Assembly (NCBI GenBank): GCA_963674945.2
Contig: CAXXWQ010000002.1
Span: 256,001 to 320,000, forward strand
Reading direction: 5' to 3'
Length of the DNA: 64,000 nucleotides
DNA from: an uncultured Desulfosarcina sp.
Lineage (GTDB): Bacteria; Desulfobacterota; Desulfobacteria; Desulfobacterales; Desulfosarcinaceae
The notes below the pieces were generated by a model. That model saw nothing but the letters and a program-made list of their open reading frames with translations. It was not told where the DNA came from and ran no database searches. Shown here one piece after another: positions 2,758 through 17,128 of this stretch. The position numbers and the translations under genes were made by a program. Each line of letters starts with the position of its first letter. Positions within the stretch are counted from its first letter, which is position 1.

Positions 2758-3858
2758 ATGATGTCTACGGGAAACGATCATATCACGGAGCCGTTTGGTC
2801 TGATGGACGGGGCATCCGGAATGTTTGCGCAGATTCAACAGGACGTGAACCGGCAGCGGGAAATCACCATCGATTCTTCCCAGCCACTGGAAATGCGGTT
2901 GGAAGCCTACGAAGATATCATCGATTCGGAGGTCGGCGACACCGCGTTTATCCGGGCGCGCAATATCGAGCGGGAGACCGGCCTTCGCCAGATTTTTCTG
3001 AAGTTCGAAGGAGGCAATCCCACCGGTACGCAAAAGGACCGAATCGCCTTTGCCCAGGCCATGGATGCGCTGCGACGCGGATTCGATACCATCTCGGTGG
3101 CCACCTGCGGTAACTTCGGGGTGGCCCAGGCATTGGCAGCGTCCCTTGCCGGCATTCGTTGCGTGGTTTTTATTCCTAAAAATTACCATACCCGGCGTGT
3201 CGGTGAGATAGAAGCGTTGGGTGCACGGATCGAGCGGGTGGGAGAGGATTACGAGGAGGCGGTGAAGGCAGCCGTAAAGCGGGCGGAAAAAGAGGACTGG
3301 TACGACGCCAATCCCGGCGGTCGCAATACGATCTTGCAATTGGGGGCCTACGGCGGCATCTCCTATGAGTTGTACGACGAACTGGGCGATGCGCCGGCCG
3401 CGGTTGCCGCACCGGTCTCCAACGGAACCACATTCGCCGGAATATTCAAAGGATTTGCCAGCTTGTACCGACGGGGCAAGACCTCCCGCATGCCAAAGAT
3501 GGTGGCGGGGTCCTCTTTCAGGAAGAATCCCATCATTCAGGCGGCTCTTAAGAACAAGCCCGCCTGCGAGGACCTCAAACCGGATCGAATTCGGGAAACG
3601 CAGGTCAACGAACCGCTGATCAACTGGCATGCCATCGACGGCAACCTGGCCCTGCGCGCCATTCGCGAAACTGACGGATGGGCCGGTGACGCATCGGACA
3701 AGTCCATGCGCTGGTGTTCCAAATTGATTCGCGAAAGAGAAGGGCTGGATGTCCTGCCCGCCTCCACGGCCGGACTCATCGCCCTCATCGAGCGTCACAA
3801 AACCAATCCTTTGCCCAACGACAGATACGTTGTCGTGTTGACGGGGAGAAAATCATGA
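2758..3858 (+). CDS. PLP-dependent fold-type II enzyme, threonine-synthase-like
   Basis: LKFEGGNPTGTQKDR (Schiff-base Lys), ATCGNFG, PVSNGTT, PASTAGL, VVVLTG. Confidence 0.85.
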   Translation: MMSTGNDHITEPFGLMDGASGMFAQIQQDVNRQREITIDSSQPLEMRLEAYEDIIDSEVGDTAFIRARNIERETGLRQIFLKFEGGNPTGTQKDRIAFAQAMDALRRGFDTISVATCGNFGVAQALAASLAGIRCVVFIPKNYHTRRVGEIEALGARIERVGEDYEEAVKAAVKRAEKEDWYDANPGGRNTILQLGAYGGISYELYDELGDAPAAVAAPVSNGTTFAGIFKGFASLYRRGKTSRMPKMVAGSSFRKNPIIQAALKNKPACEDLKPDRIRETQVNEPLINWHAIDGNLALRAIRETDGWAGDASDKSMRWCSKLIREREGLDVLPASTAGLIALIERHKTNPLPNDRYVVVLTGRKS

Positions 3859-4934
3859 GACCGGAAGGAAACGCCATCGTCTATTGTGAAGGCGCATTTG
3901 CCACCCTGAACGGCAAAACGGCACACGGCCTGGTGCGTTTTTGCCGAAGATACCGGATTATCGCCGTGGTGGATACCCGTTACGCGGGAGCCGATGCCGG
4001 AGAAGTCCTGGACGGTAAGAAGAACGGGATCTCCGTGGTGGGATCCATCGAGGCGGCCGTGGACATGGCAGATCGTGCCGGAACCAAGGCCACCCACCTG
4101 GTGATCGGCATCGCGCCGGACGGCGGGCGTTTGTCGAAAGATGCCCGCCAGGATGTGGTCCGGGCCATCGGTCTCGGATTGAACGTGGACTGCGGCCTCC
4201 ATGATTTTCTGTCCGAAGACAATGAGATCGCGGAAAAGGCCCGTGAGTGCGGTGTCAGCCTCCGGGATATCCGCAAGCCACCGCAGCGAAAGGATCTTCA
4301 CTTTTTTTCCGGCAGGATCGAATCGGTACAGGCGCTTACAATCGCCATCCTGGGAACCGATTCGGCCGTGGGCAAACGGACAACGGCCTGGCTTCTGGTG
4401 CAGGCGCTGGAGAGGCGCGGTTACCGGGCCGAGATGATCGGAACCGGGCAGACCGCGTGGATGCAGGGAGCGCGCTACGGAATGATTCTGGATTCCCTGG
4501 TCAACGATTTTGTCTCCGGTGAGATCGAACATGCCGTTTGCCGGGCCTGGGAGGAACAGCGACCTGACGTCATCGTCATCGAAGGGCAGGGAAGCTTGAT
4601 GAACCCGGCCTACCCGGGCGGTTTCGAGATACTGGCGGCGGGGCGGCCGGACATCGTAATTCTGCAACACGCCCCGGCCCGGAGAGACTACGACGGTTTT
4701 CCCGGCTATCCCATTCACCCCCTGTCCAGGCAGATTCAGGCCATCGAGATCCTGTCGGGAAAGCCGGTTGTTGCCGTTACCATTAACCATGAAAATCTTT
4801 CCGACGAACAGATCCCTTCGATTCTGGGTGCCATCGAGACGGTGGTGGGGCTCCCGGCATTCGATTCCCTTCGCGACGGGGGGGACTCGTTGGCCGAGGT
4901 ATTGGTTCCCCGTATTCCGAAAGGAGAACGTTGA
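3855..4934 (+). CDS. DUF1611 family protein (DgcN-like putative N-acetyltransferase, P-loop C-terminal domain)
   Basis: GKTAHGLVR, GIAPDGG, GLHDFL, GTDSAVGKRTT, TGQT, IEGQGSL motifs. ATG at 3855 overlaps the upstream stop (ATGA). Confidence 0.88.
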   Translation: MRPEGNAIVYCEGAFATLNGKTAHGLVRFCRRYRIIAVVDTRYAGADAGEVLDGKKNGISVVGSIEAAVDMADRAGTKATHLVIGIAPDGGRLSKDARQDVVRAIGLGLNVDCGLHDFLSEDNEIAEKARECGVSLRDIRKPPQRKDLHFFSGRIESVQALTIAILGTDSAVGKRTTAWLLVQALERRGYRAEMIGTGQTAWMQGARYGMILDSLVNDFVSGEIEHAVCRAWEEQRPDVIVIEGQGSLMNPAYPGGFEILAAGRPDIVILQHAPARRDYDGFPGYPIHPLSRQIQAIEILSGKPVVAVTINHENLSDEQIPSILGAIETVVGLPAFDSLRDGGDSLAEVLVPRIPKGER

Positions 4935-4936
4935 CC

Positions 4937-7297
4937 ATGTCGGATGATACTTCTACGATTTCTTCTTTCGACGACCCATTGGAAACGCTCGTTGTTTTCG
5001 ATCGGTTGGTGGTCGGCCCCGTAAAGCTGTCGCCTCGCCGGCTGGTGGCCCCCTATCGCCTGGAATGGGATGGAAAAACGGAACAGACGGAACTGATCTA
5101 CAATTACGAAGAGGATGTATTCGATCGCCGATCACCTGAATCAAGGAACCTGGCCGCCATGATCGCCGCCCAGGTGGCCCTGAATTACGGTCTCTTCTGT
5201 CGCAAGATTGTCTTCCATGGACACTTCGATAAAACCGACCGTCAATTTCTCCGTGAGATGGCCGAAAATACCGCCCGGGAGATTTTCGTAAAGAAGTTTA
5301 TAGAGCCCAATCCCTTTCTGGTGGGTGACGCGGTGGGGCTGCCGGCAGTCAAGCCCAGGGCCTATCTTAGGGCGAAACTTTACTTTCCTGAAAAGGTTCG
5401 CGGTGATGGATTTCACAGGTGGAAGACGGATAAGGGCCGCTACTGTGTACTTTCTTCCGGTGGCAAGGACAGCCTGCTCAGTTATGGCCTGCTCGACGAA
5501 CTGGGAAAAGACGTCCATCCGATTTTCGTCAACGAGTCGGGGCGTCACTGGTTCACCGCCTTGAATGCCTATCGCCATTTCCGGGACAATATCGCCAACA
5601 CGGCCCGGGTCTGGGTCAATGCCGACCGTCTCTATGCCTGGATGCTCCGCAGGATGCCCTTTATCCGAAAAGACTTCTCCAGTGTTCGTGCGGACGAATA
5701 TCCCATCAGACTTTGGACGGTGGCGGTGTTTCTCTTCGGTGTTCTTCCATTGATGCGTAAACGGGAGGTGGGGAGCCTCGTCATCGGAGACGAATTCGAT
5801 ACCTCCCGGCGGATCACCACCTCCGGTATTCGCCACTATGACGGATTGTACGATCAGAGCATCTGGTTCGATCAGCAGCTTACCCGATATTTCCATCACA
5901 AAGGGTGGTCCATCGTCCAATTCTCCCTATTGCGGCCCCTTTCCGAACTCTTGATCGAGAAAATTCTGGTCAAGCGCTATCCCCATCTCCAGACACATCA
6001 GATGTCCTGCCATGCCACCCACAAGGACGCAGAACGCGTCTTGCCGTGCGGCAGATGCGAAAAATGCCGTCGCATCGTAGGCATGCTCACCGCACTGGGA
6101 GAAGATCCCGGCCGATGTGGCTATACCGTTCAGCAGGTGGCGGATTGCTTTGCCGCCCTGTTCGAAAAGGGCCTCTACAGCCAACCCTCGGCAGAGGCGG
6201 GACACCTGTTTTTTTTACTGTCACGATCGGCTGCGGCAGTGTCCATGCCCGCCGATGTCGCAAGATCCGGCAGGGCATGCCCTGAAATCATGCAGTTGCG
6301 TTTCGATCCCAAGGTCTCTCCCATGGATGGTATCCCTCTGGATCTGCGGGCGGCGTTGTATGCTCTGTTCCTCGACCATGCCGATGGCGCGGTTCAGCGC
6401 CGCGGGTCCGCCTGGCAGGCGGTGGATGCGTTGTCCCATCCGGATTTGAAAAATCCCTTCGGTTTCGAATCGACACAGGGTGAGAAAAAGTCGATTTTTC
6501 AGTCAGAGGCGGCCATGGACACCTATTTCTGGGGAGAGTTGTGCTGGCCTGATGCCGACAATCGACTTCAGATCGTGGATACGGCACTTTTACCGGTGGG
6601 AGCCATCGAACAGCACGGCCCTCATCTGCCCCTGGACACGGACGCCCACGATGCGGCCTATCTGGCCAGGCGGGTGGCAGAGGATTGCAGTGATCCCAAA
6701 CCGCTGGTGCTCCCCCTCATCGCCTACGGCGTATCCTATCATCACGAGGCGTTCAAGGGCACCATCAGCATCAACAACGACACCTTGTCCCAGCTGGTAT
6801 ACGACGTGGGGATCAGCCTGGCCAAAAACGGCATCCAGAAACTGGTGATCATCAACGGTCATGGGGGAAACGCCCCTTCGTTGAACTTCGCCGCCCAGCG
6901 CATCAACCAGGATGCCCGCATCTTCGTCTGTGTGGATACCGGCGAGACCAGCGATGTGGACGTGGACGACCTCATCGAGACACCCAACGATGTCCACGCC
7001 GGGGAGATCGAGACCAGCACGAGCCTTGCCAATCGGCCGGAAGGAGTGCGCATGGATCGTCTTCACATGGAGGTTCCCGAATTTACCAGTCGTTATCTGG
7101 ATTTTTCTTCCAAGCGAGGGGTCGCCTGGTATGCTCATACCCACAAAATATCCAACAGCGGTGTCATGGGGGATCCCACCAAGGCCAGTGTCGAGAAGGG
7201 AGAGAAAATTTGGGCCGCCATGGTCGGGCATCTGGTGAATTTCGTGGATCAGATCAAGAGTATGACGCTTGAAGAGATCTACCAGAAGAAATATTGA
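4937..7297 (+). CDS. Fusion protein: N-terminal PP-loop (HUP) ATP pyrophosphatase with Cys cluster, plus C-terminal creatininase/MftE-family amidohydrolase
   Basis: LSSGGKDS and SCH...CGRCEKC in the N-terminal part; [39 protein letters not shown] in the last ~260 aa. AAGGAG RBS upstream. Confidence 0.82.
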
Positions 7298-7299
7298 AC

Positions 7300-8367
7300 A
7301 TGAGAATTAAGAGATTAGAAGCCTGGCCGGTCACCATGAGACTGGCAGAACCGTATACCATCGCCTACGAAACGATTACCTCGGCCACAAACGTGTTTCT
7401 GCGGATCGAGACCACCAGCGGCATCGTCGGGTATGGGTGTTCGGCACCGGATGCGGCGGTGACCGGAGAGACCGCCGAAACGGTAATGGATGCCCATCGC
7501 CGGGTCATCGACCCAGCCTTTACGGGTTCCGATCCCCTGCGACCGGTCATGCTGACCGAGCGGATTCGCTCCCAACTGAAAGCTGAGCCCGCGGCCATGG
7601 CCATGGCGGACATGGCTCTTTTCGACATCATGGGAAAAGTAGCCGGTCTTCCTCTTTTCCGAATGCTGGGGGGATATCGGGATCGCATGCGTACCAGCGT
7701 CACCATCGGGATTCTTCCCGTCCGCGAAACCGTGGACAGGGCATCGGCATACGTGAGCCAGGGCTTTCGGGCGTTGAAGATCAAGGGGGGCGGTGACGTG
7801 GACCTGGACATCGAGCGGATGCTCCGGGTGCGGGAATCCGTGGGTGAGAAGATCGCGCTTCGTTTCGACGCCAACCAGGGGTATGACGAGGCGGACACCC
7901 TTCGTTTCGTCATCGCAGTGCGGCCGGTGCGGCTGGAACTGTTGGAACAGCCCACGCCTCGGGCCAAAGAGCGTCTTTTGGGGAGGGTAACCCGGCAGGT
8001 GACCCTTCCCGTCATGGCCGACGAGAGCCTCATGAATCTTTCGGATGCCCTTCGGTTGGCGAGAAGAGAGATCGTAGACATGGTCAACATCAAACTCATG
8101 AAGGTGGGCGGAATCAACGAGGCCCTCAAGATCAACGCCGTAGCCCGCGCAGCCGACCTGGATGTGATGGTCGGCTGCATGGATGAATCGGCCTTTGCCA
8201 TTGCCGCCGGGCTTCATTTTGCCCTGGCACGGCCCAATGTCGCCTATGCGGACCTGGACGGTCATCTGGATCTCGTGGAGGATCCCGCTTTTGGTGCCGT
8301 CATTTTGAAAAAAGGGATCTTGTATCCCACGGGGCGACCAGGGATCGGTCTGGATCCCCGTCATTGA
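7300..8367 (+). CDS. Enolase-superfamily dipeptide epimerase (L-Ala-D/L-Glu epimerase / DgcA-like)
   Basis: LKIK, FDANQG, EQP, MADES, NIKLMK, GCMDE, DLDG motifs. Confidence 0.88.
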
Positions 8368-8490
8368 CGACTTCGGTAAAAATCCGATATCTGCGTTATG
8401 CTTCATCCCTCGTCACTGCGGCGTATTTATGTATACGACTCATTCCTCGGGATTCGCAAGCCTTGCTCTCGGACTTTTATCGAAGTCGTT
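8365..8490. repeat. Family A inverted-repeat element (MITE/ERIC-like), complete copy
   Basis: GACGACTTCGGTAAAAATCCGA ... TCGGACTTTTATCGAAGTCGTT termini; related copies at 29203, 41932 and 57990. Confidence 0.8.
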
Positions 8491-8544
8491 CAAAATCAAT
8501 TTCGTTTGTATCGTTACTTTGAACGAGGAAAAGAGAAGATAGAC

Positions 8545-9807
8545 ATGATCCAAGCCATGGGCGCCTTCGGCAGTTTGTTCGCCGCTGTTTTTATGTTATT
8601 GACCGGAAACGGTCTGCTCAACACCTTACTCAGTACGCGGATGGCCATGGACGGGTATCCCATGGTCACCATGGGTGTCGTCCTCTCCTGCTATTTTTCG
8701 GGGCTGTTGGCCGGTTCATTCGTCTGCCATCGTCTCATTCAACGGATCGGGCACATTCGCGCCTTTGCCGTCTTCGCAGCCGGTACAACAGTCATAGCTC
8801 TCTCACATGGACTATTTCTGTCTGCTTGGGTTTGGGGTGGGCTGCGCTTTTTCTGCGGTGTCACCTCCTTCGGACTGTTCATGACCATAGAAAGCTGGCT
8901 CAACGAATGCACCGATTCGGGATATCGGGGGCGGGTTTTCTCCATCTATATGATTCTCTGCTATTTGGGCATCGGCGTCGGTCAGCAGCTCCTCAATGCC
9001 GGGGACATCCAGGGTAACGAGCTTTTCCTCATCGCCGGGATCATCTTCGCCCTGTGCCTGATTCCCGTGGCGGCCACCGAAGGTGTGCATCCGAAGTTAC
9101 CCGGTCGAGCACGGTTCAGTTTTACAGCCATTTTTCGAAGGGCACCCTTGGGCATGCTTGGCAGCGTGGCTGCCGGGCTCACCAATAGTGCCTTTTACGC
9201 CATGATGCCGGTGGTGTGCAACGCCGTGGGCCTGAGCCATCATCAGCTCTCCTGGATCATGTCCATCACGGTATTTGCCGGCCTGTCCGCCCAATGGATC
9301 GTTGGGGCCGTTTCGGACCGGTTTGACCGAACCCTGGTCCTTACCATTGTTGTTATCGCCATCGTGGCAGTCAGTGGATTCATGTTCATCTACAAAGATT
9401 CCTCGTTTGTTGGACTGGCTTTCAAAATGGCGCTGGTCGGCGCCCTCATCTTTTCCGTCTATCCACTTGCCGTGGCCCGGACCCACGATATCTTCGGTGG
9501 TCAGGATGCGGTTGCCGTCAGCACCGGCCTGTTGTTCGCCTATAGTATCGGAGCCAGCGTGAGCCCTCTCCTTGCGTCGGGGATGATGACCCTGGTTCAC
9601 ACGCCGTTGGGTCTTTTCGCCTTCTGGTGCTTGGTTTATAGTATTTTTACCGGGTTCATCTTCTATTTGAGAAAAAAGGAAAAAATAGAAATCGTACCTG
9701 TGGATGATCAGGTCTCCTTCGTTCCGATGAAGAGTACCTCTCCGGTGGCCATGGTACTGGATCCGCGAACCGATCCTGAGGATGATGGTAAAGAGCATTT
9801 AGTGTGA
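8545..9807 (+). CDS. MFS transporter (YcaD-like)
   Basis: About 12 hydrophobic segments; RIGHIRAF, IESWLN...RGRVFSIY, GAVSDRFDR. Confidence 0.88.
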   Translation: MIQAMGAFGSLFAAVFMLLTGNGLLNTLLSTRMAMDGYPMVTMGVVLSCYFSGLLAGSFVCHRLIQRIGHIRAFAVFAAGTTVIALSHGLFLSAWVWGGLRFFCGVTSFGLFMTIESWLNECTDSGYRGRVFSIYMILCYLGIGVGQQLLNAGDIQGNELFLIAGIIFALCLIPVAATEGVHPKLPGRARFSFTAIFRRAPLGMLGSVAAGLTNSAFYAMMPVVCNAVGLSHHQLSWIMSITVFAGLSAQWIVGAVSDRFDRTLVLTIVVIAIVAVSGFMFIYKDSSFVGLAFKMALVGALIFSVYPLAVARTHDIFGGQDAVAVSTGLLFAYSIGASVSPLLASGMMTLVHTPLGLFAFWCLVYSIFTGFIFYLRKKEKIEIVPVDDQVSFVPMKSTSPVAMVLDPRTDPEDDGKEHLV

Positions 9808-9877: not shown

Positions 9878-10730
9878 TTACTGAACCACTACTCGCATTC
9901 GACCGATGTTCTGGACGAGGGCGTAGGGTGTTTCGGTATCCCCCTCCCTCTGCGAAGCGACGCGAATCACGGGAAAATATGTCCCAGGTTCCGAATAGGC
10001 ATACGTGGCAGATAACATCACCTGATTGCCCGATGTGTCGATATTGCCAAGAGGCGCCGCAACCGGATCGGTGCCGGCACCCTCGAAATCCCATTGCGCG
10101 GAAACAACCTTTCCCGTATTTGGCGGTACTTCGATGACCGCCGAGAACGCGACAGTCTCTCCGGCCGCAATCTCAACGCGTTCTTTTCCATCGGCACTCA
10201 GGGTTACAACTGGCTGAATGCCGCTATGCTCCGCAGCTGTCTCAGGTACTTCCACTTGGCCATCGATCACCTCATACGTAGTACTCATAGGTGGCGGAAC
10301 GCCGTCTTCGACCCATGCACTTAGCTCACGCAGCGCCTGTTCTATCGCTCCTATGTAGTCAACGGTGTGCGCTTGGGCGATAAGATCACTCTCCTCAGGC
10401 GTTTTGTGCTGGGCATGATCGATAAACCAGAGTCGGTGATTATCGTCAAGGTTCGATCCCAGCGCTTCTTCGACTCGCGAACGATACCAGTCGGCCTGCC
10501 AGGGGAGGGAATCCATATCCATCAATGTCTGCACCACGATTATCTTTCCATCAAATTGACCCGTCTGGTGAGACCCTGCCGCATTGAATGCACCAACCGG
10601 ACCCAGCAGGACATCTCTCTGTGGGTATATCGGAGTGCCATCGGGTTTTCTGAATTGATCCCATACATACATGTCAGGTGTCGGAATATAGTGACGGTGA
10701 TAGGTTTGCAGGGCGAGATAATCCGAAGAA
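9878..10730 (-). pseudogene. 3' fragment of an alpha/beta-hydrolase-like protein with C-terminal PKD-like domain
   Basis: YLALQTYHRH...WDQFR...PIYPQR...WDFEGAG...YSEPGTYFPVIRV. No signal peptide or convincing start; the ORF begins inside the end of the upstream gene. Confidence 0.6.
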
Positions 10731-10736
10731 AACATT

Positions 10737-12350
10737 CTATTCAACCTCGATTCCGACACAGCCCAATCCAGATATCACCTTCGCAATAATTTCGTCGAAT
10801 TTGATATAGTGCCGTATCAAGACGCGGCCGCGTTTGGGAAAGTCGGGTTTGCATGCAAGCAGGTCTTTGCCGGCTTGAATTCCCTCTTCGATTCTTCCCA
10901 ACAAACCCAATATAGCGGCTTTCATGAGTGGCTCCCAAAATAGCAGGGGCCTTTTGAAATGAAGGGTTTCATCGTACGCCCGGTCGTATTTCTCCTGCCG
11001 GACCCAATCGACCCACAACGCGTAGTGAACGGTAATGTTATAGTACGGGTTTTGTTCGATGGTTTGCCTGATGAGCGCCGGACCCCGTTGCCAGTCGCCG
11101 AAAAGGGTCATGAGGTATCCAAAATTTTCAAGAAAAACCAATGAGTTCGGATTCAATTGCAATGCACGGTCGACCTCGGCCAGACCCGCAGAGAGTTCAT
11201 TTTCAAACAACAGAATGAAGGCCATGACTGTCCTGACCCGTTGGTTGGCCGGTTCGAGTCTTACACTTTTCTCGGCATAGATTTTGGCTTTGTCGATGGG
11301 TGTTTTTAGGTCGAGCAATTCCAGGCTGTAATTGAGGGAATAGAGGCGGGCGAGCATGCTCCATGCGAGTCCACACTCCGGCTCTTTTTCACACGCCTGC
11401 CGGAGTGCCGCAAAGGAATCCATAAAGGTCTGGGGGGAAAAGTCCATCAAAAACTGGTAAAATCGCAGGATCGCCTGGTGGGTACTAAGCTCCAAGGGGG
11501 GGATTCTTTTGGACTCAATCGACAGGGTTTTCACGATCACCCCATCTTCACTGGTGATCTTACCGACAACCGCCGCGGCAATTCTCTCCTCGAAGGAAAT
11601 CAGCCGGGAGGGGTTGAAATCGGATTGATACGCGTCCATCCAGATATGAATGCCCGTTTGTGCGTCGGCCAGACTGACGATCACTTTCAGGCCGGTCATA
11701 TCCTTGTTGACACTTCCGCAGAGCACGAAGCGTGCCCCGATATCCGTGGCACGTCGCAGACCTTTCTCGGGGCTTTGCCGCAGAACACGGATCTCCTGGT
11801 AGCGCGTGATTTCCAGGGCGATCTCCGTGGCGATACCAATCCCGATGTAATCCAACTCCCCATTGCCGGTAAGGTTCTCCAGTGACTGAACGAGGATTGT
11901 GGGCCAGACGTTGGCTTCGGATGACGCAAGTTTTTCGTTGGGTTGAATCGGTCTTTGAAAGCCGACATTTTCTGTCCGGTGAAATACGGGGACGTAGGTG
12001 CCCTTGGGGATGTCGATGCGGATGGGATCGTTTCGGCCGGCCACCAGATAGTAGCGTTCAAGTGCCCTCCGGAGCTTGTTGGCCTGAATGCTCACGATGG
12101 GATCGGTTGCCTGGTCGAAATCATCTTGCCGACCGAACACCTCGGTTGCGACCGTGTATCCCTTGATTTCGTCCGCCTGCCCGGCCAGGGCTTTGTTGAT
12201 CACATATTGGAAGAATGCGCGCTGGGCATCCGTGGCTTTGAACTCGGCAGAGTTCAAGATACGGTCCGACTGCGCATGAATGGCCGAAGGTGGAAATTCG
12301 GCGTCCTCCACATGGGCCGTTACCGGTTTCGTTATTTTACTCTTGGGCAT
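10737..12350 (-). CDS. Putative regulator: N-terminal wHTH-like domain, TolB-N-like domain and TPR repeats
   Basis: IKGYTVATEVFGR.DDFD...DPIVSIQANKLRRALERYY...IDIPKGTYVPVF, followed by TPR-like helices (ALQLNPN). Confidence 0.75.
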   Translation of the reverse strand: MPKSKITKPVTAHVEDAEFPPSAIHAQSDRILNSAEFKATDAQRAFFQYVINKALAGQADEIKGYTVATEVFGRQDDFDQATDPIVSIQANKLRRALERYYLVAGRNDPIRIDIPKGTYVPVFHRTENVGFQRPIQPNEKLASSEANVWPTILVQSLENLTGNGELDYIGIGIATEIALEITRYQEIRVLRQSPEKGLRRATDIGARFVLCGSVNKDMTGLKVIVSLADAQTGIHIWMDAYQSDFNPSRLISFEERIAAAVVGKITSEDGVIVKTLSIESKRIPPLELSTHQAILRFYQFLMDFSPQTFMDSFAALRQACEKEPECGLAWSMLARLYSLNYSLELLDLKTPIDKAKIYAEKSVRLEPANQRVRTVMAFILLFENELSAGLAEVDRALQLNPNSLVFLENFGYLMTLFGDWQRGPALIRQTIEQNPYYNITVHYALWVDWVRQEKYDRAYDETLHFKRPLLFWEPLMKAAILGLLGRIEEGIQAGKDLLACKPDFPKRGRVLIRHYIKFDEIIAKVISGLGCVGIEVE

Positions 12351-12903: not shown

Positions 12904-14010
12904 ATGAAAAAAGGAAGCAGCTGCATTTTCGCAATCCTCATCGCCGTGATTGCGTTGACCTCAATCGACACCCAGGCCTTCGAGATCATCACCCGTGAGA
13001 TGATGGAAAGAGAGGTCGTCACGGAAGTCGATCTGATTCGAACCGTGGACAATTTCATCATCCTGTTCGATACATCCGGTACGACCAACCAAATGGTGCC
13101 CGGCACCTCCATTTCGAAAATCCAGGCCGCCAAGGCATTTTTGAAGGAACGCAATAGCTGGCTGCCGGAGCTGGGCTTTGAGGCGGGTCTGTACGAGTAC
13201 ACCAACAATGAGACCCTTGCCGGAACCTTCAAGGAGATCTACGGGATGAGGCCGTATGACCGCGAATCTTTCGCTGCGGCCATCGACCAACTGCCGGAAA
13301 AGGGCCAGGGACCGGCCATGCTGGGGGAAGGTCTTCGTGGCCTGCGCAAGGTGCTCGCCGGTCTTACCGGAAAGACGGCGGTCATCATGTTTACCGACGG
13401 CAGCTTCACGGTCAATCGCGGCACCAAGCGTCCCTTGCAGATCGCCCAGGAGATCGCCGCACAGCACGATGTCTGTTTCTATCTGATCAGCAGTGCCACG
13501 GAATCGGTCAATGTCCAGTTGCTGGAAGCGGTTTCTAAGGTCAACGCCTGCTCCCGCGTCGTTCCCATCCAGCTGTTTATAGAATATCCGCAATATCTGG
13601 GCGGCGCCCTGTTTACCGTCAGATCAACCAGCTATGAACGTCTGCGGCCAACCACCAAAGTCGTCGGTTTCGTCGCCCAGGATATGCTGTTCGATTTTGA
13701 CAGTCCGCAGATCCGGGAAGATTATTTCGAAAAACTCGGCATGCTGGGCGATTACCTGAAAAAAAATCCCAAGGCTTACGTGGTGGCTGCGGGCTTCACC
13801 GACGACACCGGCGACGAGGATTACAATCTGGCGCTCTCAAAGCGGCGTGTCTCCAGCGTCAAGGATCATCTCGTAACAAACTATGGAATCGATCCGGACC
13901 GTATCGTGACCCTGTGGTTCGGTGGGTTTAATCCCGTCGCCGATAACGGCACCCCCCCAGGCCGGCAGCGAAACCGCCGGGTTGAGGTTGCCGTGGGCAC
14001 CGGAAACTAA
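12904..14010 (+). CDS. Secreted vWA-domain plus OmpA C-terminal (peptidoglycan-binding) protein
   Basis: Signal peptide, LFDTSGT and FTDG (MIDAS-like), GFTDDTG..YNLALSKRR, NRRVE. Confidence 0.85.
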   Translation: MKKGSSCIFAILIAVIALTSIDTQAFEIITREMMEREVVTEVDLIRTVDNFIILFDTSGTTNQMVPGTSISKIQAAKAFLKERNSWLPELGFEAGLYEYTNNETLAGTFKEIYGMRPYDRESFAAAIDQLPEKGQGPAMLGEGLRGLRKVLAGLTGKTAVIMFTDGSFTVNRGTKRPLQIAQEIAAQHDVCFYLISSATESVNVQLLEAVSKVNACSRVVPIQLFIEYPQYLGGALFTVRSTSYERLRPTTKVVGFVAQDMLFDFDSPQIREDYFEKLGMLGDYLKKNPKAYVVAAGFTDDTGDEDYNLALSKRRVSSVKDHLVTNYGIDPDRIVTLWFGGFNPVADNGTPPGRQRNRRVEVAVGTGN

Positions 14011-14029
14011 CCAATCCTGGAGAATCCTC

Positions 14030-15559
14030 ATGGGAAAATCTTTCACAATCAAACTCGCTCTACTCCTTATCTTCTCGGTGGTGGGGAGCGGGTGTGTCCA
14101 CACCGTCGCCCCTCCCCAAATGCGCATGACCACACAGATTCCTGAATCGATCATCGTTCCGGACAAGATCGAGACAAGATTGGGTACACTCGAGTTCTTC
14201 GACGGGTTCCCTGCGGATGAAACCGTCCAGAAAATGCATGACTATCTCTATTTTCACAGGGCCGTCGATGTGTTTCTGGATGAGATGAGCGCGGCTTCCA
14301 TTTTCGCAATTCGTGAGGGACTCAAAAGTGTCGGGGTCCATGAATGCCACCAGATGGCCCTCTTCGAAAGCCTGATGGATTCTAAAGCGCTGTGGCTGAC
14401 CGCCAATACGGAAACGGTATATGCCTCCAATTTTCTCGATCTGAAAAAAGACGGGCCCGTCGTGATCGAATCTCCGCCCAATGTCCTGGGCATTTTAGAC
14501 GACATGTGGATGCGCTATGTGGGCGATATCGGCAATGCCGGCCCGGACAAAGGACAGGGCGGCAAATTCCTGATCCTTCCTCCCGGGTTCGACGGCGATG
14601 TTCCTGAGGGTTACCACGTGTTTCGGTCCAGAACGTACGGCGTGTGGTTTATCGTCAGGGGGTTTTTCGTCGATGGCGATCCCGGACCGGCAGTGGAAAG
14701 CTTCCGGCGTGACCTCCGCATCTATCCTCTCTCAGCAGCCGACAATCCTCCGGCCATGGCGTTTATAAATGCCTCGGGTGTGCCTCACAATACCATCCAC
14801 GCCAATAATCATATGTTTTATGAAGAGCTGAACGCCGTTGTGCAGGAGGAACATGAGGACGCCATCGATGCCGAAAGAAAAGGCAGACTGGCCCTGCTGG
14901 GCATCATCAAAGGCCATGCCTTCAACCCGGCTGAGCGCCTGAAGTTGATCATGGATGAATCGGCCTATACGGGCGCCGCCATTGCCAGGACCCTCTCCTG
15001 GGCATCCACCGACCCAACGGTCTTTTTCTACGAGGATGATCCCACCTGGTTCAGCGCCTTTGCCATTGGAAATCATGAGTTCTTGTCCAAAGAGGGATGG
15101 CTGCACCGGGATGCCCGCACCATGTTCATGTACAACGCCATCGGCATCACCCCGGCCATGGCGGTGGCCATGCCGGGCGTCGGCTCTCAATATGCTGCCG
15201 CGGCAAAGGATTCGGAAGGGAACTGGCTGGATGGGAGCAAAACCTACAAACTGACATTGCCGCCGAATGTGCCGGCCAAGGATTTCTGGTCGGTGGTGTT
15301 GTATGACCCCCAGACCCGCTCCATGCTGCAGAGCGATCAACAGTTCCCGAGCCTCAACAGCCAGAGTGGAAAGGTTGAGATAAACGATGACGGTTCAACC
15401 GATGTTTATTTCGGTCCCGAAGCCCCGGCATACAAGGAGAACAATTGGGTGCAGACGGTTTCCGGTAAAGGTTTCTGGCTCATTCTTCGGTTGTACGGTC
15501 CTTTGGAACCCTGGTTTGACAAAACCTGGCGGCCGGGAAAAATTGAATTGATTGAGTAA
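14030..15559 (+). CDS. DUF1254/DUF1214 domain lipoprotein
   Basis: Lipobox-like GSGC, TANTETVY, GPDKGQGGKFL, GSQY, FWSVVLYD, RLYGP...W.PG. Confidence 0.85.
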   Translation: MGKSFTIKLALLLIFSVVGSGCVHTVAPPQMRMTTQIPESIIVPDKIETRLGTLEFFDGFPADETVQKMHDYLYFHRAVDVFLDEMSAASIFAIREGLKSVGVHECHQMALFESLMDSKALWLTANTETVYASNFLDLKKDGPVVIESPPNVLGILDDMWMRYVGDIGNAGPDKGQGGKFLILPPGFDGDVPEGYHVFRSRTYGVWFIVRGFFVDGDPGPAVESFRRDLRIYPLSAADNPPAMAFINASGVPHNTIHANNHMFYEELNAVVQEEHEDAIDAERKGRLALLGIIKGHAFNPAERLKLIMDESAYTGAAIARTLSWASTDPTVFFYEDDPTWFSAFAIGNHEFLSKEGWLHRDARTMFMYNAIGITPAMAVAMPGVGSQYAAAAKDSEGNWLDGSKTYKLTLPPNVPAKDFWSVVLYDPQTRSMLQSDQQFPSLNSQSGKVEINDDGSTDVYFGPEAPAYKENNWVQTVSGKGFWLILRLYGPLEPWFDKTWRPGKIELIE

Positions 15560-15589
15560 GAAAAAAGTACACGAAAGGGAGAGATCAAT

Positions 15590-17128
15590 ATGAATGATTT
15601 CAAAAAAATGAGCAAAGGATTTCTCGTTGCCTGCATGGTCACTCTTTTCCTGTCAAGCATCGTCGGCGCAAAAGAAATTCCAAAGGGCTATAACACACCG
15701 ATTCCCAGTTCCATCATGACACCGGACAAGGTGAAAACCCGCATTGGAACGCTCGAATTCTTTGACGGTGTCCCGTCCAAAGAAACAGCGAAAGTGGCTC
15801 TTGATAACTTGACCTTTCTTCGCGGCGTGGAGGCCTTTCTCAACGGCGTGCCCATGGCATCCATCCATGCGCTTGTGGAAGGATATAAAAGTATCGGGGT
15901 CACGGAAGCGAACCATATGATCGTGACCGATAAATTGATGGACTCAAATCCGCTCTTTCTCACAGCCAACACGGATACGGTGTATGCCTTCAGTTTCTTC
16001 GATCTGGAGAAAACCGGGCCGCTGGTCATTGAAGTCCCGCCGGGAACAGGGCCGGGAACGGTCAATGACGCCTATTTCCGTTTTGTTGTGGATATGGGAG
16101 CGCCGGGTCCGGATCGAGGCAAAGGCGGAAAATACCTGATCCTTCCTCCGGGTTATGAGAAAGAGGCGCCAGAGGGGTACTTTGTCGCGAAATCGCCAAG
16201 CTACATCAACCTGTTCGTTCTCAGAGGATTTCTTGTGGACGGCAAACCCGATTCAGCCGCCAAAATGTTCTCCGAGCAGGTGCATGTCTATCCGCTCTCC
16301 CAAAAAGACAACCCGCCCAAGATGGTGATCACCTCGGGATCGGGCGTCTCATACAACACCATCCACGCCAATGACTTCACCTTTTATGAAGAGATAAACG
16401 ATGTGCTGCAAAAAGAACCCGTTGATTTCATCGATCCGGAACTGCGCGGCCTGTTCGCCGGTATCGGCCTGCAAAAAGGCAAAGAATTCAAGCCGACGCC
16501 AGAGCTTAAAAAGATCCTGACCGATGCGGTGGCCGTGGCCAATGCCACGGCACGCGCCTTGATTTTCCATACTCCCCAGAAAGAGGCCTACCTGTATGAG
16601 AACTCCTATTGGAAGACAGCCTTTATCGGCGGCAACCATGAGTGGCTCAAAGATGAAGGCACGGGCGGACGCTACCTGGATGCACGCACCCTCTTTTTCT
16701 ATGGTGCGACGGTGAACACCCCTGCCATGGTGATGCAAATGGTGGGTGTGGGATCGCAATACGCCATGATTACCCAGGACAGTAAGGGGAACGTTCTGGA
16801 TGGCGGGAAAACCTATAAGTTGAATATCCCGGCCAACGTACCGGCCAAGGATTTCTGGTCGGTTGTGATCTATGACCCGCAAACGCGATCAGAACTACAA
16901 ACCTCCAATCCCTTCCCGAGCAAAAACAGCGAGGCCGACAAGATGGTCGCCAATGCCGACGGGTCCATCGACCTCTACTTCGGGCCTGAAGCACCCAAAG
17001 GCAAAGAAAACAACTGGATAGAAACCGTGCCCGACAAATCCTGGTTTCCGATCCTGCGCCTTTATGGCCCCCTGGAACCATGGTTTGAGAAGACCTGGAA
17101 ACCTGGTGAGATCGAGCTGGTCAAATAA
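15590..17128 (+). CDS. DUF1254/DUF1214 domain protein (tandem paralogue)
   Basis: Signal peptide, TANTDTVY, GPDRGKGGKYL, FWSVVIYD, RLYGP. Confidence 0.87.
   Translation: MNDFKKMSKGFLVACMVTLFLSSIVGAKEIPKGYNTPIPSSIMTPDKVKTRIGTLEFFDGVPSKETAKVALDNLTFLRGVEAFLNGVPMASIHALVEGYKSIGVTEANHMIVTDKLMDSNPLFLTANTDTVYAFSFFDLEKTGPLVIEVPPGTGPGTVNDAYFRFVVDMGAPGPDRGKGGKYLILPPGYEKEAPEGYFVAKSPSYINLFVLRGFLVDGKPDSAAKMFSEQVHVYPLSQKDNPPKMVITSGSGVSYNTIHANDFTFYEEINDVLQKEPVDFIDPELRGLFAGIGLQKGKEFKPTPELKKILTDAVAVANATARALIFHTPQKEAYLYENSYWKTAFIGGNHEWLKDEGTGGRYLDARTLFFYGATVNTPAMVMQMVGVGSQYAMITQDSKGNVLDGGKTYKLNIPANVPAKDFWSVVIYDPQTRSELQTSNPFPSKNSEADKMVANADGSIDLYFGPEAPKGKENNWIETVPDKSWFPILRLYGPLEPWFEKTWKPGEIELVK

Follow-up and report, generated by a model that had tools for sequence, protein, structure and literature searches.

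A conserved modular four-gene operon of an uncultured Desulfosarcina sp. as a candidate amino-acid acylation and inversion pathway

Introduction

The nearest characterised relatives of the operon described here all concern amino-acid chirality: DgcN-DgcA, MurL, the Ala-Glu epimerases, serine racemase and diaminopropionate (DAP) ammonia-lyase. As described in the available parts of the papers cited, DgcN-DgcA is an irreversible and costly route that takes acidic D-amino acids from D to L (PMC12363236; PMC10845958), and MurL is a C-terminal epimerase that converts ATP to AMP and works from L to D only (PMC5808125; PMC8788868). Ser84 of serine racemase is the re-face base required for racemisation (PMC6424897; PMC6411801), while for DAP ammonia-lyase, which acts on both L- and D-DAP, Lys77 and Asp120 have been proposed to act together in catalysis (PMC4000059). 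Here we analysed a 64,000-nt stretch of an uncultured Desulfosarcina sp. (assembly GCA_963674945.2, contig CAXXWQ010000002.1, positions 256,001 to 320,000, forward strand; hereafter the window), in which a pyridoxal phosphate (PLP) enzyme, a DUF1611 protein, a PP-loop/creatininase fusion and an enolase-superfamily epimerase are encoded in a row. We tentatively read these four genes, with a confidence slightly short of even, as a conserved modular operon in which an amino acid that is not acidic, and probably basic, would be acylated, inverted, released and finally either eliminated or racemised.

No description of this cassette was found in the open literature, although subscription papers or supplements could contain one. 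Likewise, the open literature yielded no paper joining DUF1611 with an epimerase (the DUF1611 papers were off topic by title) and no on-topic paper for the combination of creatininase, QueC, epimerase and threonine synthase; for MurL together with archaea, no paper on MurL was among the matches listed.

Results

All five open reading frames (ORFs) of the region, including that of a major facilitator superfamily (MFS) transporter, are intact and lie on the + strand of the window:

2758..3858, + strand, PLP enzyme of fold-type II, PRK06381 clade (PALP; NCBIfam PRK06381)
3855..4934, + strand, DUF1611 protein, DgcN-related (PF07755+PF17396, DUF1611+DUF1611_N)
4931-7297, + strand, fusion protein of 788 aa (MurL-like/QueC-fold half plus creatininase half)
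4931..6490, + strand, N-terminal half of the fusion, MurL-like/QueC-fold, predicted adenylating (start TTG 4931 or ATG 4937)
6515..7297, + strand, C-terminal half of the fusion, creatininase-family metal amidohydrolase (PF02633, fusion residues 536-772)
7294..8367, + strand, enolase-superfamily epimerase of the dipeptide-epimerase type (MR_MLE_N/C)
8545..9807, + strand, MFS transporter, PRK03633-like but under the cut-off (MFS_1), outside the conserved unit

The PLP and DUF1611 genes share an ATGA overlap (3855-3858). If the TTG starts at 4931 and 7294 are used, the DUF1611/fusion and fusion/epimerase junctions are 4-nt overlaps, and the alternative ATG starts (4937 and 7300) each lie 2 nt past the preceding stop; these coordinates and junctions bear out an earlier sequence-only reading of the window, in which the four enzyme genes were overlapping or 2 nt apart. 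That reading also placed the MFS gene next in line, and while the adjacency holds, membership does not (see below); the MFS gene most likely starts at 8545, from where its homologues align, and since this start sits 177 nt past the epimerase stop the gene is not translationally coupled.

A search of genome contigs with the PP-loop half of the fusion found 59 loci, which belong to Desulfobacterota, Bacteroidota/Ignavibacteria, Acidobacteria, Gemmatimonadota, Eisenbacteria and Planctomycetota. The number of loci was 57 for the creatininase half, 52 for the PLP gene, 47 for DUF1611, 46 for the epimerase and 1 for the MFS gene; the seven loci without a PLP gene are contig starts. Co-occurrence of the four enzyme genes is thus well beyond chance, and the gene-neighbourhood check that accompanied the sequence-only reading found them co-conserved across phyla, both here and in 35 genomes anchored on the PLP gene (see below). 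The fusion protein had 2880 matches among 8000 scored candidates. Distribution of the cassette is nevertheless patchy, as it is present in 10/24 congeners and its PP-loop gene is missing from 14/24; matches to the PLP clade were found in 20/401, 8/301, 8/201, 2/201 and 2/201 genomes of five phyla, seeds included. The MFS gene occurs in 23/30 genomes of the genus, including 12/14 without the cassette, and adjoins the cassette in 5/11 carriers. It was consequently rejected as a pathway exporter, being present at 1/59 loci and genus-wide regardless of the cassette, and is a neighbour rather than a member; the earlier suggestion of an exported product thereby loses its support.

Because anchoring bias was to be avoided, the PLP gene served as the anchor of a second survey, which covered 35 newly drawn genomes of five phyla. 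DUF1611 followed the PLP gene in 34/34 cases with room, and was itself followed by the MurL-like PP-loop gene (19), directly by the epimerase (13) or by a contig end (2), never by another gene. A whole-genome profile search found no PP-loop orthologue in the 13 genomes with the PLP-DUF1611-epimerase form, and the creatininase-family genes that they do have reach no more than 26-34% identity with the domain of the cassette, with no orthologue among them. These 13 are all among the 19 Bacteroidota carriers, of which 6 have the PP-loop gene. The reverse reduced form, with the PLP gene directly before the fusion, was seen at 9/59 loci, two pairs of which share a genome, and the epimerase was missing in 8/8 of the PLP-fusion loci with room. 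In a midpoint-rooted FastTree phylogeny of the PLP enzyme (123 sequences), both reduced forms are interspersed with full ones at several points. The cassette is hence modular, consisting of the PLP enzyme together with DUF1611 plus epimerase and/or MurL-like domain plus creatininase, and each pair has been lost together several times. The PLP enzyme is the constant part, and one member of each separable pair has, as its nearest named relative, an enzyme that performs inversion at a C-terminal alpha-carbon. The earlier view of five activities in one obligatory chain gives way to two separable pairs around the PLP enzyme.

Some variants of these genes were also recorded. A second DUF1611+epimerase clade, about 40% identical, forms a pair of its own in genomes with reduced cassettes (L148, L149, L227, L230), and locus L193 has the order PLP-DUF1611-PP-loop-epimerase without creatininase. 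Other PP-loop fusions carry DUF1611 in front (P0124, 855 aa) or a methyltransferase behind (P0123, 825 aa), each as a single-member cluster. A 1762-aa protein from a eukaryote collection (P0312) has the PALP, DUF1611, creatininase and enolase domains on a single polypeptide; it probably arose when a eukaryotic gene caller spliced a bacterial contig, the alternative being a true fusion. Two cassette copies (L059, L216) show several frameshifts across their genes, for which sequencing error is possible. The PP-loop half had no plasmid match; a Chondrinema plasmid (L150:9947-13561) carries a PLP-clade gene (64%) without other cassette genes, beside ppk2, a succinylglutamate desuccinylase/aspartoacylase-family gene and a 2OG-Fe(II) oxygenase.

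Divergent stand-alone PP-loop proteins were also found, and 4/10 of their clusters looked up named Thermoplasmatota. The counts for such archaeal-type loci refer to the best 80 of 558 metagenome loci, many on short contigs, with absences applying to the locus only: DUF1611 was present in 72, PLP in 50, the epimerase in 28 and creatininase in 0, while a convergent RimI-like GNAT, absent from the 59 bacterial loci, was seen in 53 and an M14-like protein in 31. All 28 epimerase loci also carry the M14-like hydrolase, and creatininase is absent from them. The archaeal label comes from the Thermoplasmatota cluster names, the ESM Atlas and the neighbours in some loci, which we take to be proteasome alpha and topoisomerase VI, and was not checked locus by locus. 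For most archaeal PLP sequences, identity with the window PLP enzyme is 61-71%. On the midpoint-rooted tree, 39/44 archaeal-type sequences group in a single clade that lies within the bacterial ones (node support 0.86), a hint that the gene may have passed between the domains.

By profile scores, the parts of the cassette belong to known superfamilies yet fail specific family cut-offs (ThrC TIGR00260, DgcN, DgcA and MurL). The PLP enzyme reaches 406 bits against NCBIfam PRK06381, a model named 'threonine synthase' (cut-off 266), but 87.9 against ThrC TIGR00260 (cut-off 167.1) and 50.9 against the DAP lyase model PRK08206 (cut-off 276). Another gene of the host genome scores 184 for TIGR00260 and a separate ThrC is also present in 21/26 carriers, so that identity with the housekeeping ThrC, the check attached to the earlier reading, was rejected; the NCBIfam clade named 'threonine synthase' is probably something else. 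An ESM Atlas search with the PLP enzyme returned its own clade only. ThrC structures are closest to its model (Z 35.5-37.1 vs 33.0 or less for others), and like ThrC it has Thr at the pyridine-N position. It differs from ThrC in that Arg160, Ser155, Thr88 and Thr85 of the Thermus enzyme correspond to Gln194, Pro186, Phe120 and Cys117, with Gln194 found in 122/128 sequences; Arg160, Ser155 and Thr88 presumably form the phosphate site, though the literature search yielded no source for Arg160. The Schiff-base Lys93 is kept in 126/126 sequences and Cys117 (codon 3106-3108) in 44/44 aligned and 125/127 tallied ones. In an ungapped alignment of an archaeal orthologue, Cys117 aligns with Ser84 of rat serine racemase and with the Asp of the TDGN loop of Salmonella DAP ammonia-lyase, and aligned ranges place it at Asp120 of the E. 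coli enzyme. The cassette enzyme thus resembles both in having a second potential base at this position, and differs from them in that the residue is Cys, found in none of the aligned structures. As a lead, we suggest that it may be a two-faced (Lys93/Cys117) racemase or lyase.

The DUF1611 protein shares with DgcN the two-domain DUF1611 architecture (Rossmann plus P-loop) beside an enolase racemase, and its structural relatives are PDB 2g0t, 2obn and 7xrj. Against the DgcN model NF041892 it scores 157 bits (cut-off 480), and three cassette orthologues score 157-171. P-loop residues Gly173-Lys174-Arg175 are kept in 142-144/144 sequences, and an N-acyltransferase or ATP-dependent ligase is predicted. 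For DgcN-DgcA itself, studied by Yu and colleagues (ISME J 17:537, 2023), acetyl-CoA is said to be the donor. The creatininase domain scores 230 bits against PF02633 (cut-off 31), falls under the cut-offs for creatininase TIGR04448 (106 vs 235) and MftE TIGR03964 (159 vs 172), and keeps its ligands Glu32, His34, Asp43, His116 and Glu164 (domain numbering) in 72-73 of 72-73 sequences.

The epimerase lies nearest to the dipeptide epimerases 3RIT, 3JVA and YkfB, and falls below both DgcA NF042940 (154 vs 400 bits) and the L-Ala-D/L-Glu epimerase model (218 vs 500). It shares with YkfB/YcjG and 3RIT the catalytic Lys pair (Lys164/Lys267), the metal ligands and DxD; KxK, the second Lys, the three metal ligands and DxD are kept in 96-97 of 96-97 sequences. 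Unlike YkfB/YcjG, it has Glu26 (89/96) at the position of B. subtilis YkfB Arg24, which we take to bind the Glu side chain of the substrate, and no NlpC/P60 peptidase or peptide transporter lies beside it. Asp53 (93/96) and Asp297 (Asp in 69/96, Asn in 27/96) match Glu51 and Asp296 of 3RIT, an enzyme that presumably prefers cationic dipeptides. Glu26, Asp53 and Asp297 would form an acidic pocket, which argues against Glu and for a basic residue as substrate. Compared to DgcN-DgcA, the cassette likewise unites a DUF1611 protein and an enolase-type racemase in one operon, for which a deacylating hydrolase would be a logical third step; it differs in that both genes score far under the cut-offs, the epimerase pocket is acidic, a PLP enzyme always stands in front and the MurL-like/creatininase fusion usually in between.

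The N-terminal 520 aa of the fusion had no Pfam match. Its PP-loop (SGGKDS) lies at 5456-5473 and its Zn motif C-x12-C-x2-C-x2-C comprises Cys360, 373, 376 and 379; 155-157/157 sequences retain the PP-loop, NESGxHW, all four Cys and several acidic residues. The nearest named family is MurL, with which it shares a ~150-aa N-domain, the PP-loop, a Cys cluster and a predicted carboxylate adenylation. Weak MurL hidden Markov model (HMM) matches were found in 26/40 aligned members, and 27/30 ESM Atlas matches are MurL clusters (0.96), the best of which carries PF26298/PF26299 on 56%; they rank after two unnamed clusters of its own family. The likeness is one of HMM and Atlas only, MurL not being among the structures compared, and the NF041275 profile had no match in 201 Bacteroidota genomes, nor in controls. 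In contrast to MurL, the window protein scores 23 bits against the NF041275 cut-off of 700, is fused to creatininase, has no MurD (MurD2) partner among the conserved neighbours of the cassette and occurs in archaea and in genomes with MurI. Among solved structures, the AF2 model (pLDDT 92.7) best matches QatC, QueC and Cap9 (Z 13.0 and rmsd 2.6 across 178 aa; Z 12.8 and rmsd 3.3 across 190 aa), and the half displays the features of QueC-like enzymes, namely the SGGxDS loop, the four-Cys Zn motif and the HUP fold; it is set apart from QueC, Cap9 and QatC by an identity of only 15-18%, by extra N- and C-terminal domains and by having no queuosine or defence genes near the cassette. Because of the MurL likeness, the QueC-type fold and the kept PP-loop and Cys motifs, this half likely adenylates a carboxylate. 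QueC-like enzymes convert the adenylate to an amide or nitrile. The cassette enzyme may do the same or may use it for inversion, as in MurL.

Discussion

Co-conservation across phyla supports the earlier proposal of an extended, previously undescribed amino-acid pathway, as does a PLP enzyme that is not the housekeeping ThrC. By homology, from which the chemical steps, their order, the direction and the substrate class are all drawn, DUF1611 would N-acylate the amino acid, and inversion of its alpha-carbon would fall either to the enolase-type epimerase, in a reversible reaction, or to the MurL-like domain, driven by ATP through an adenylate. Cleavage of the amide by the creatininase domain would then set the amino acid free, and the PLP enzyme, with Lys93 on one face and Cys117 on the other, would racemise or deaminate it. 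We prefer D to L salvage as the direction, because the minimal PLP-DUF1611-epimerase form reads most simply so. A further, somewhat unlikely, possibility is that bacteria and archaea share a chirality cassette that unites three unrelated kinds of inversion chemistry for one class of amino-acid substrates: those of a Lys/Cys two-base PLP enzyme with threonine synthase ancestry, of an enolase epimerase and of an ATP-driven MurL-family epimerase that would be the first outside peptidoglycan synthesis. Sediments hold a large pool of D-amino acids that turns over slowly and for which, to our knowledge, few routes are known; if the chirality cassette exists, sediment microbes would gain an unrecognised route for basic D-amino acids. 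A function would then follow for an unannotated PP-loop family common to bacteria and Thermoplasmatota, and the cassette would reveal whether MurL chemistry extends beyond cell walls. It is present in the cultured strains Desulfosarcina variabilis, D. alkanivorans, Eudoraea adriatica and Lewinella cohaerens.

Several observations weigh against the acylation-inversion-release reading. Among the genes flanking the cassette (237 ORFs of 78 bacterial stretches, surveyed through 146 representatives), no transporter or regulator recurred from phylum to phylum, which is unusual for a catabolic operon. The low MurL score counts in the same direction, as do nearest solved folds that, on model comparison, belong to amide- or nitrile-forming enzymes (QueC, Cap9, QatC), and MurL itself works from L to D only. 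At the PLP position of Cys117, cystathionine beta-synthase (CBS) also has Ser without racemising, so that the position is suggestive only, and a PLP enzyme accepting both enantiomers would lessen the need for inversion. For the epimerase, DxD, whose role we take to be the binding of a dipeptide with a free amine, points to such a dipeptide rather than to an N-acyl amino acid, and the archaeal epimerases have Asn297. The M14-like protein of the archaeal-type loci gave a weak family match (25.6 bits) and no PDB or NCBIfam match, with no solved relative. Finally, the either/or pattern of the modules is not clean: 8/13 PP-loop-less genomes form one tight clade on the PLP tree, 5/5 tested DUF1611-less genomes hold another DUF1611 (37-43% identity), and 5/5 tested epimerase-less loci have an epimerase elsewhere in the genome (35-57%).

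The absence of a conserved transporter or regulator, together with the QueC-like fold, keeps alive an alternative that we consider unlikely but serious, namely that the operon makes and recycles an intracellular N-acyl-D-amino-acid amide as a solute or store. Here the PLP enzyme would racemise or build the amino acid, DUF1611 would trap the D form by acylation, the PP-loop domain would adenylate the carboxylate and form an amide as in QueC and Cap9, and creatininase and epimerase would undo the amide, unless the creatininase half supplies the amine. Cys117 is compatible with a racemase, the PP-loop and creatininase halves are fused and lost together, and the sporadic neighbours of the cassette include a universal stress protein (USP), CorA, MscS, PPK2 and RimK, all of which would fit. 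However, the putative product would go unmade in the 13/19 Bacteroidota carriers that keep PLP-DUF1611-epimerase without the PP-loop gene, creatininase is missing from the archaeal forms, and MurL remains the nearest named family by HMM and language-model features. The same leading folds, QatC and Cap9, could instead suggest that the PP-loop enzyme ligates a modified amino acid onto protein or RNA, as deazaguanine is attached to a protein N-terminus by Cap9/QatC, with the other enzymes preparing or removing the moiety. The RimI-like GNAT downstream in 53/80 archaeal-type loci would agree with this, but it is convergent and absent from the bacterial loci, no target gene is conserved, the remaining parts are all small-molecule enzymes and the PP-loop gene is dispensable, making ligation improbable.

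Supply of D-residues for peptidoglycan by a MurL-type enzyme appears very improbable. The MurL-like domain speaks for it, and no glutamate racemase exceeded the TIGR00067 cut-off in the host genome or in 2/5 congeners tested, where only an Asp/Glu racemase-family gene was found. On the other hand, MurI is present in 4/5 carriers from other phyla and independent of the cassette within the genus, no MurD partner was seen, the gene is missing from the 14/24 congeners mentioned above and Thermoplasmatota carry it. Replacement of MurI by the cassette was accordingly rejected, and the earlier suggestion of cell-wall peptide synthesis is left unsupported, carriers mostly having MurI and archaeal forms existing. 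The ordinary case, in which a housekeeping threonine synthase stands beside a plain DgcN-DgcA pair and an unrelated fusion, draws on the ThrC fold and the NCBIfam name of the PLP clade, but is largely refuted by the separate ThrC in the host and in 21/26 carriers, the replacement of Thermus Arg160 and Thr85 by Gln194 and Cys117, the DgcN and DgcA scores (157/480 and 154/400) and a gene order fixed over many phyla; we regard it as the least probable of all. Ligation, peptidoglycan supply and the ordinary case are thus weaker than both the acylation-inversion-release reading and the amide alternative, and some other route outside those listed retains a small chance.

Other features of the locus

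The host genome has 7.1 Mb, and for this locus Desulfosarcina comes closest among named relatives (70-72% identity). On the opposite strand, 5' of the cassette, lie a DksA-like gene and a sigma-54 regulator. Scans gave 2 sigma-70 promoter sites vs 4.3 in shuffles, and 10 terminators vs 7.8 in shuffles, neither of them informative. Elsewhere, repeats among the flanking genes were lineage-bound only (YitT 11, sigma-54 regulator 9, USP 6, C-N hydrolase 6). Genes for a RimK-type ligase, a putative ATP-dependent Zn protease and aspartoacylase-like proteins were seen near the cassette in a few unrelated loci (L010, L015, L016, L042, L192, L194, L213). Convergent with the MFS gene, a 293-aa ORF with a weak PKD match (window 9878-10759, - strand) resembles the C-terminal part of a longer gene. 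Further downstream, two similar tandem genes of 545 and 512 aa (window 13922-17128, + strand) are presumably of the DUF1254/DUF1214 kind.

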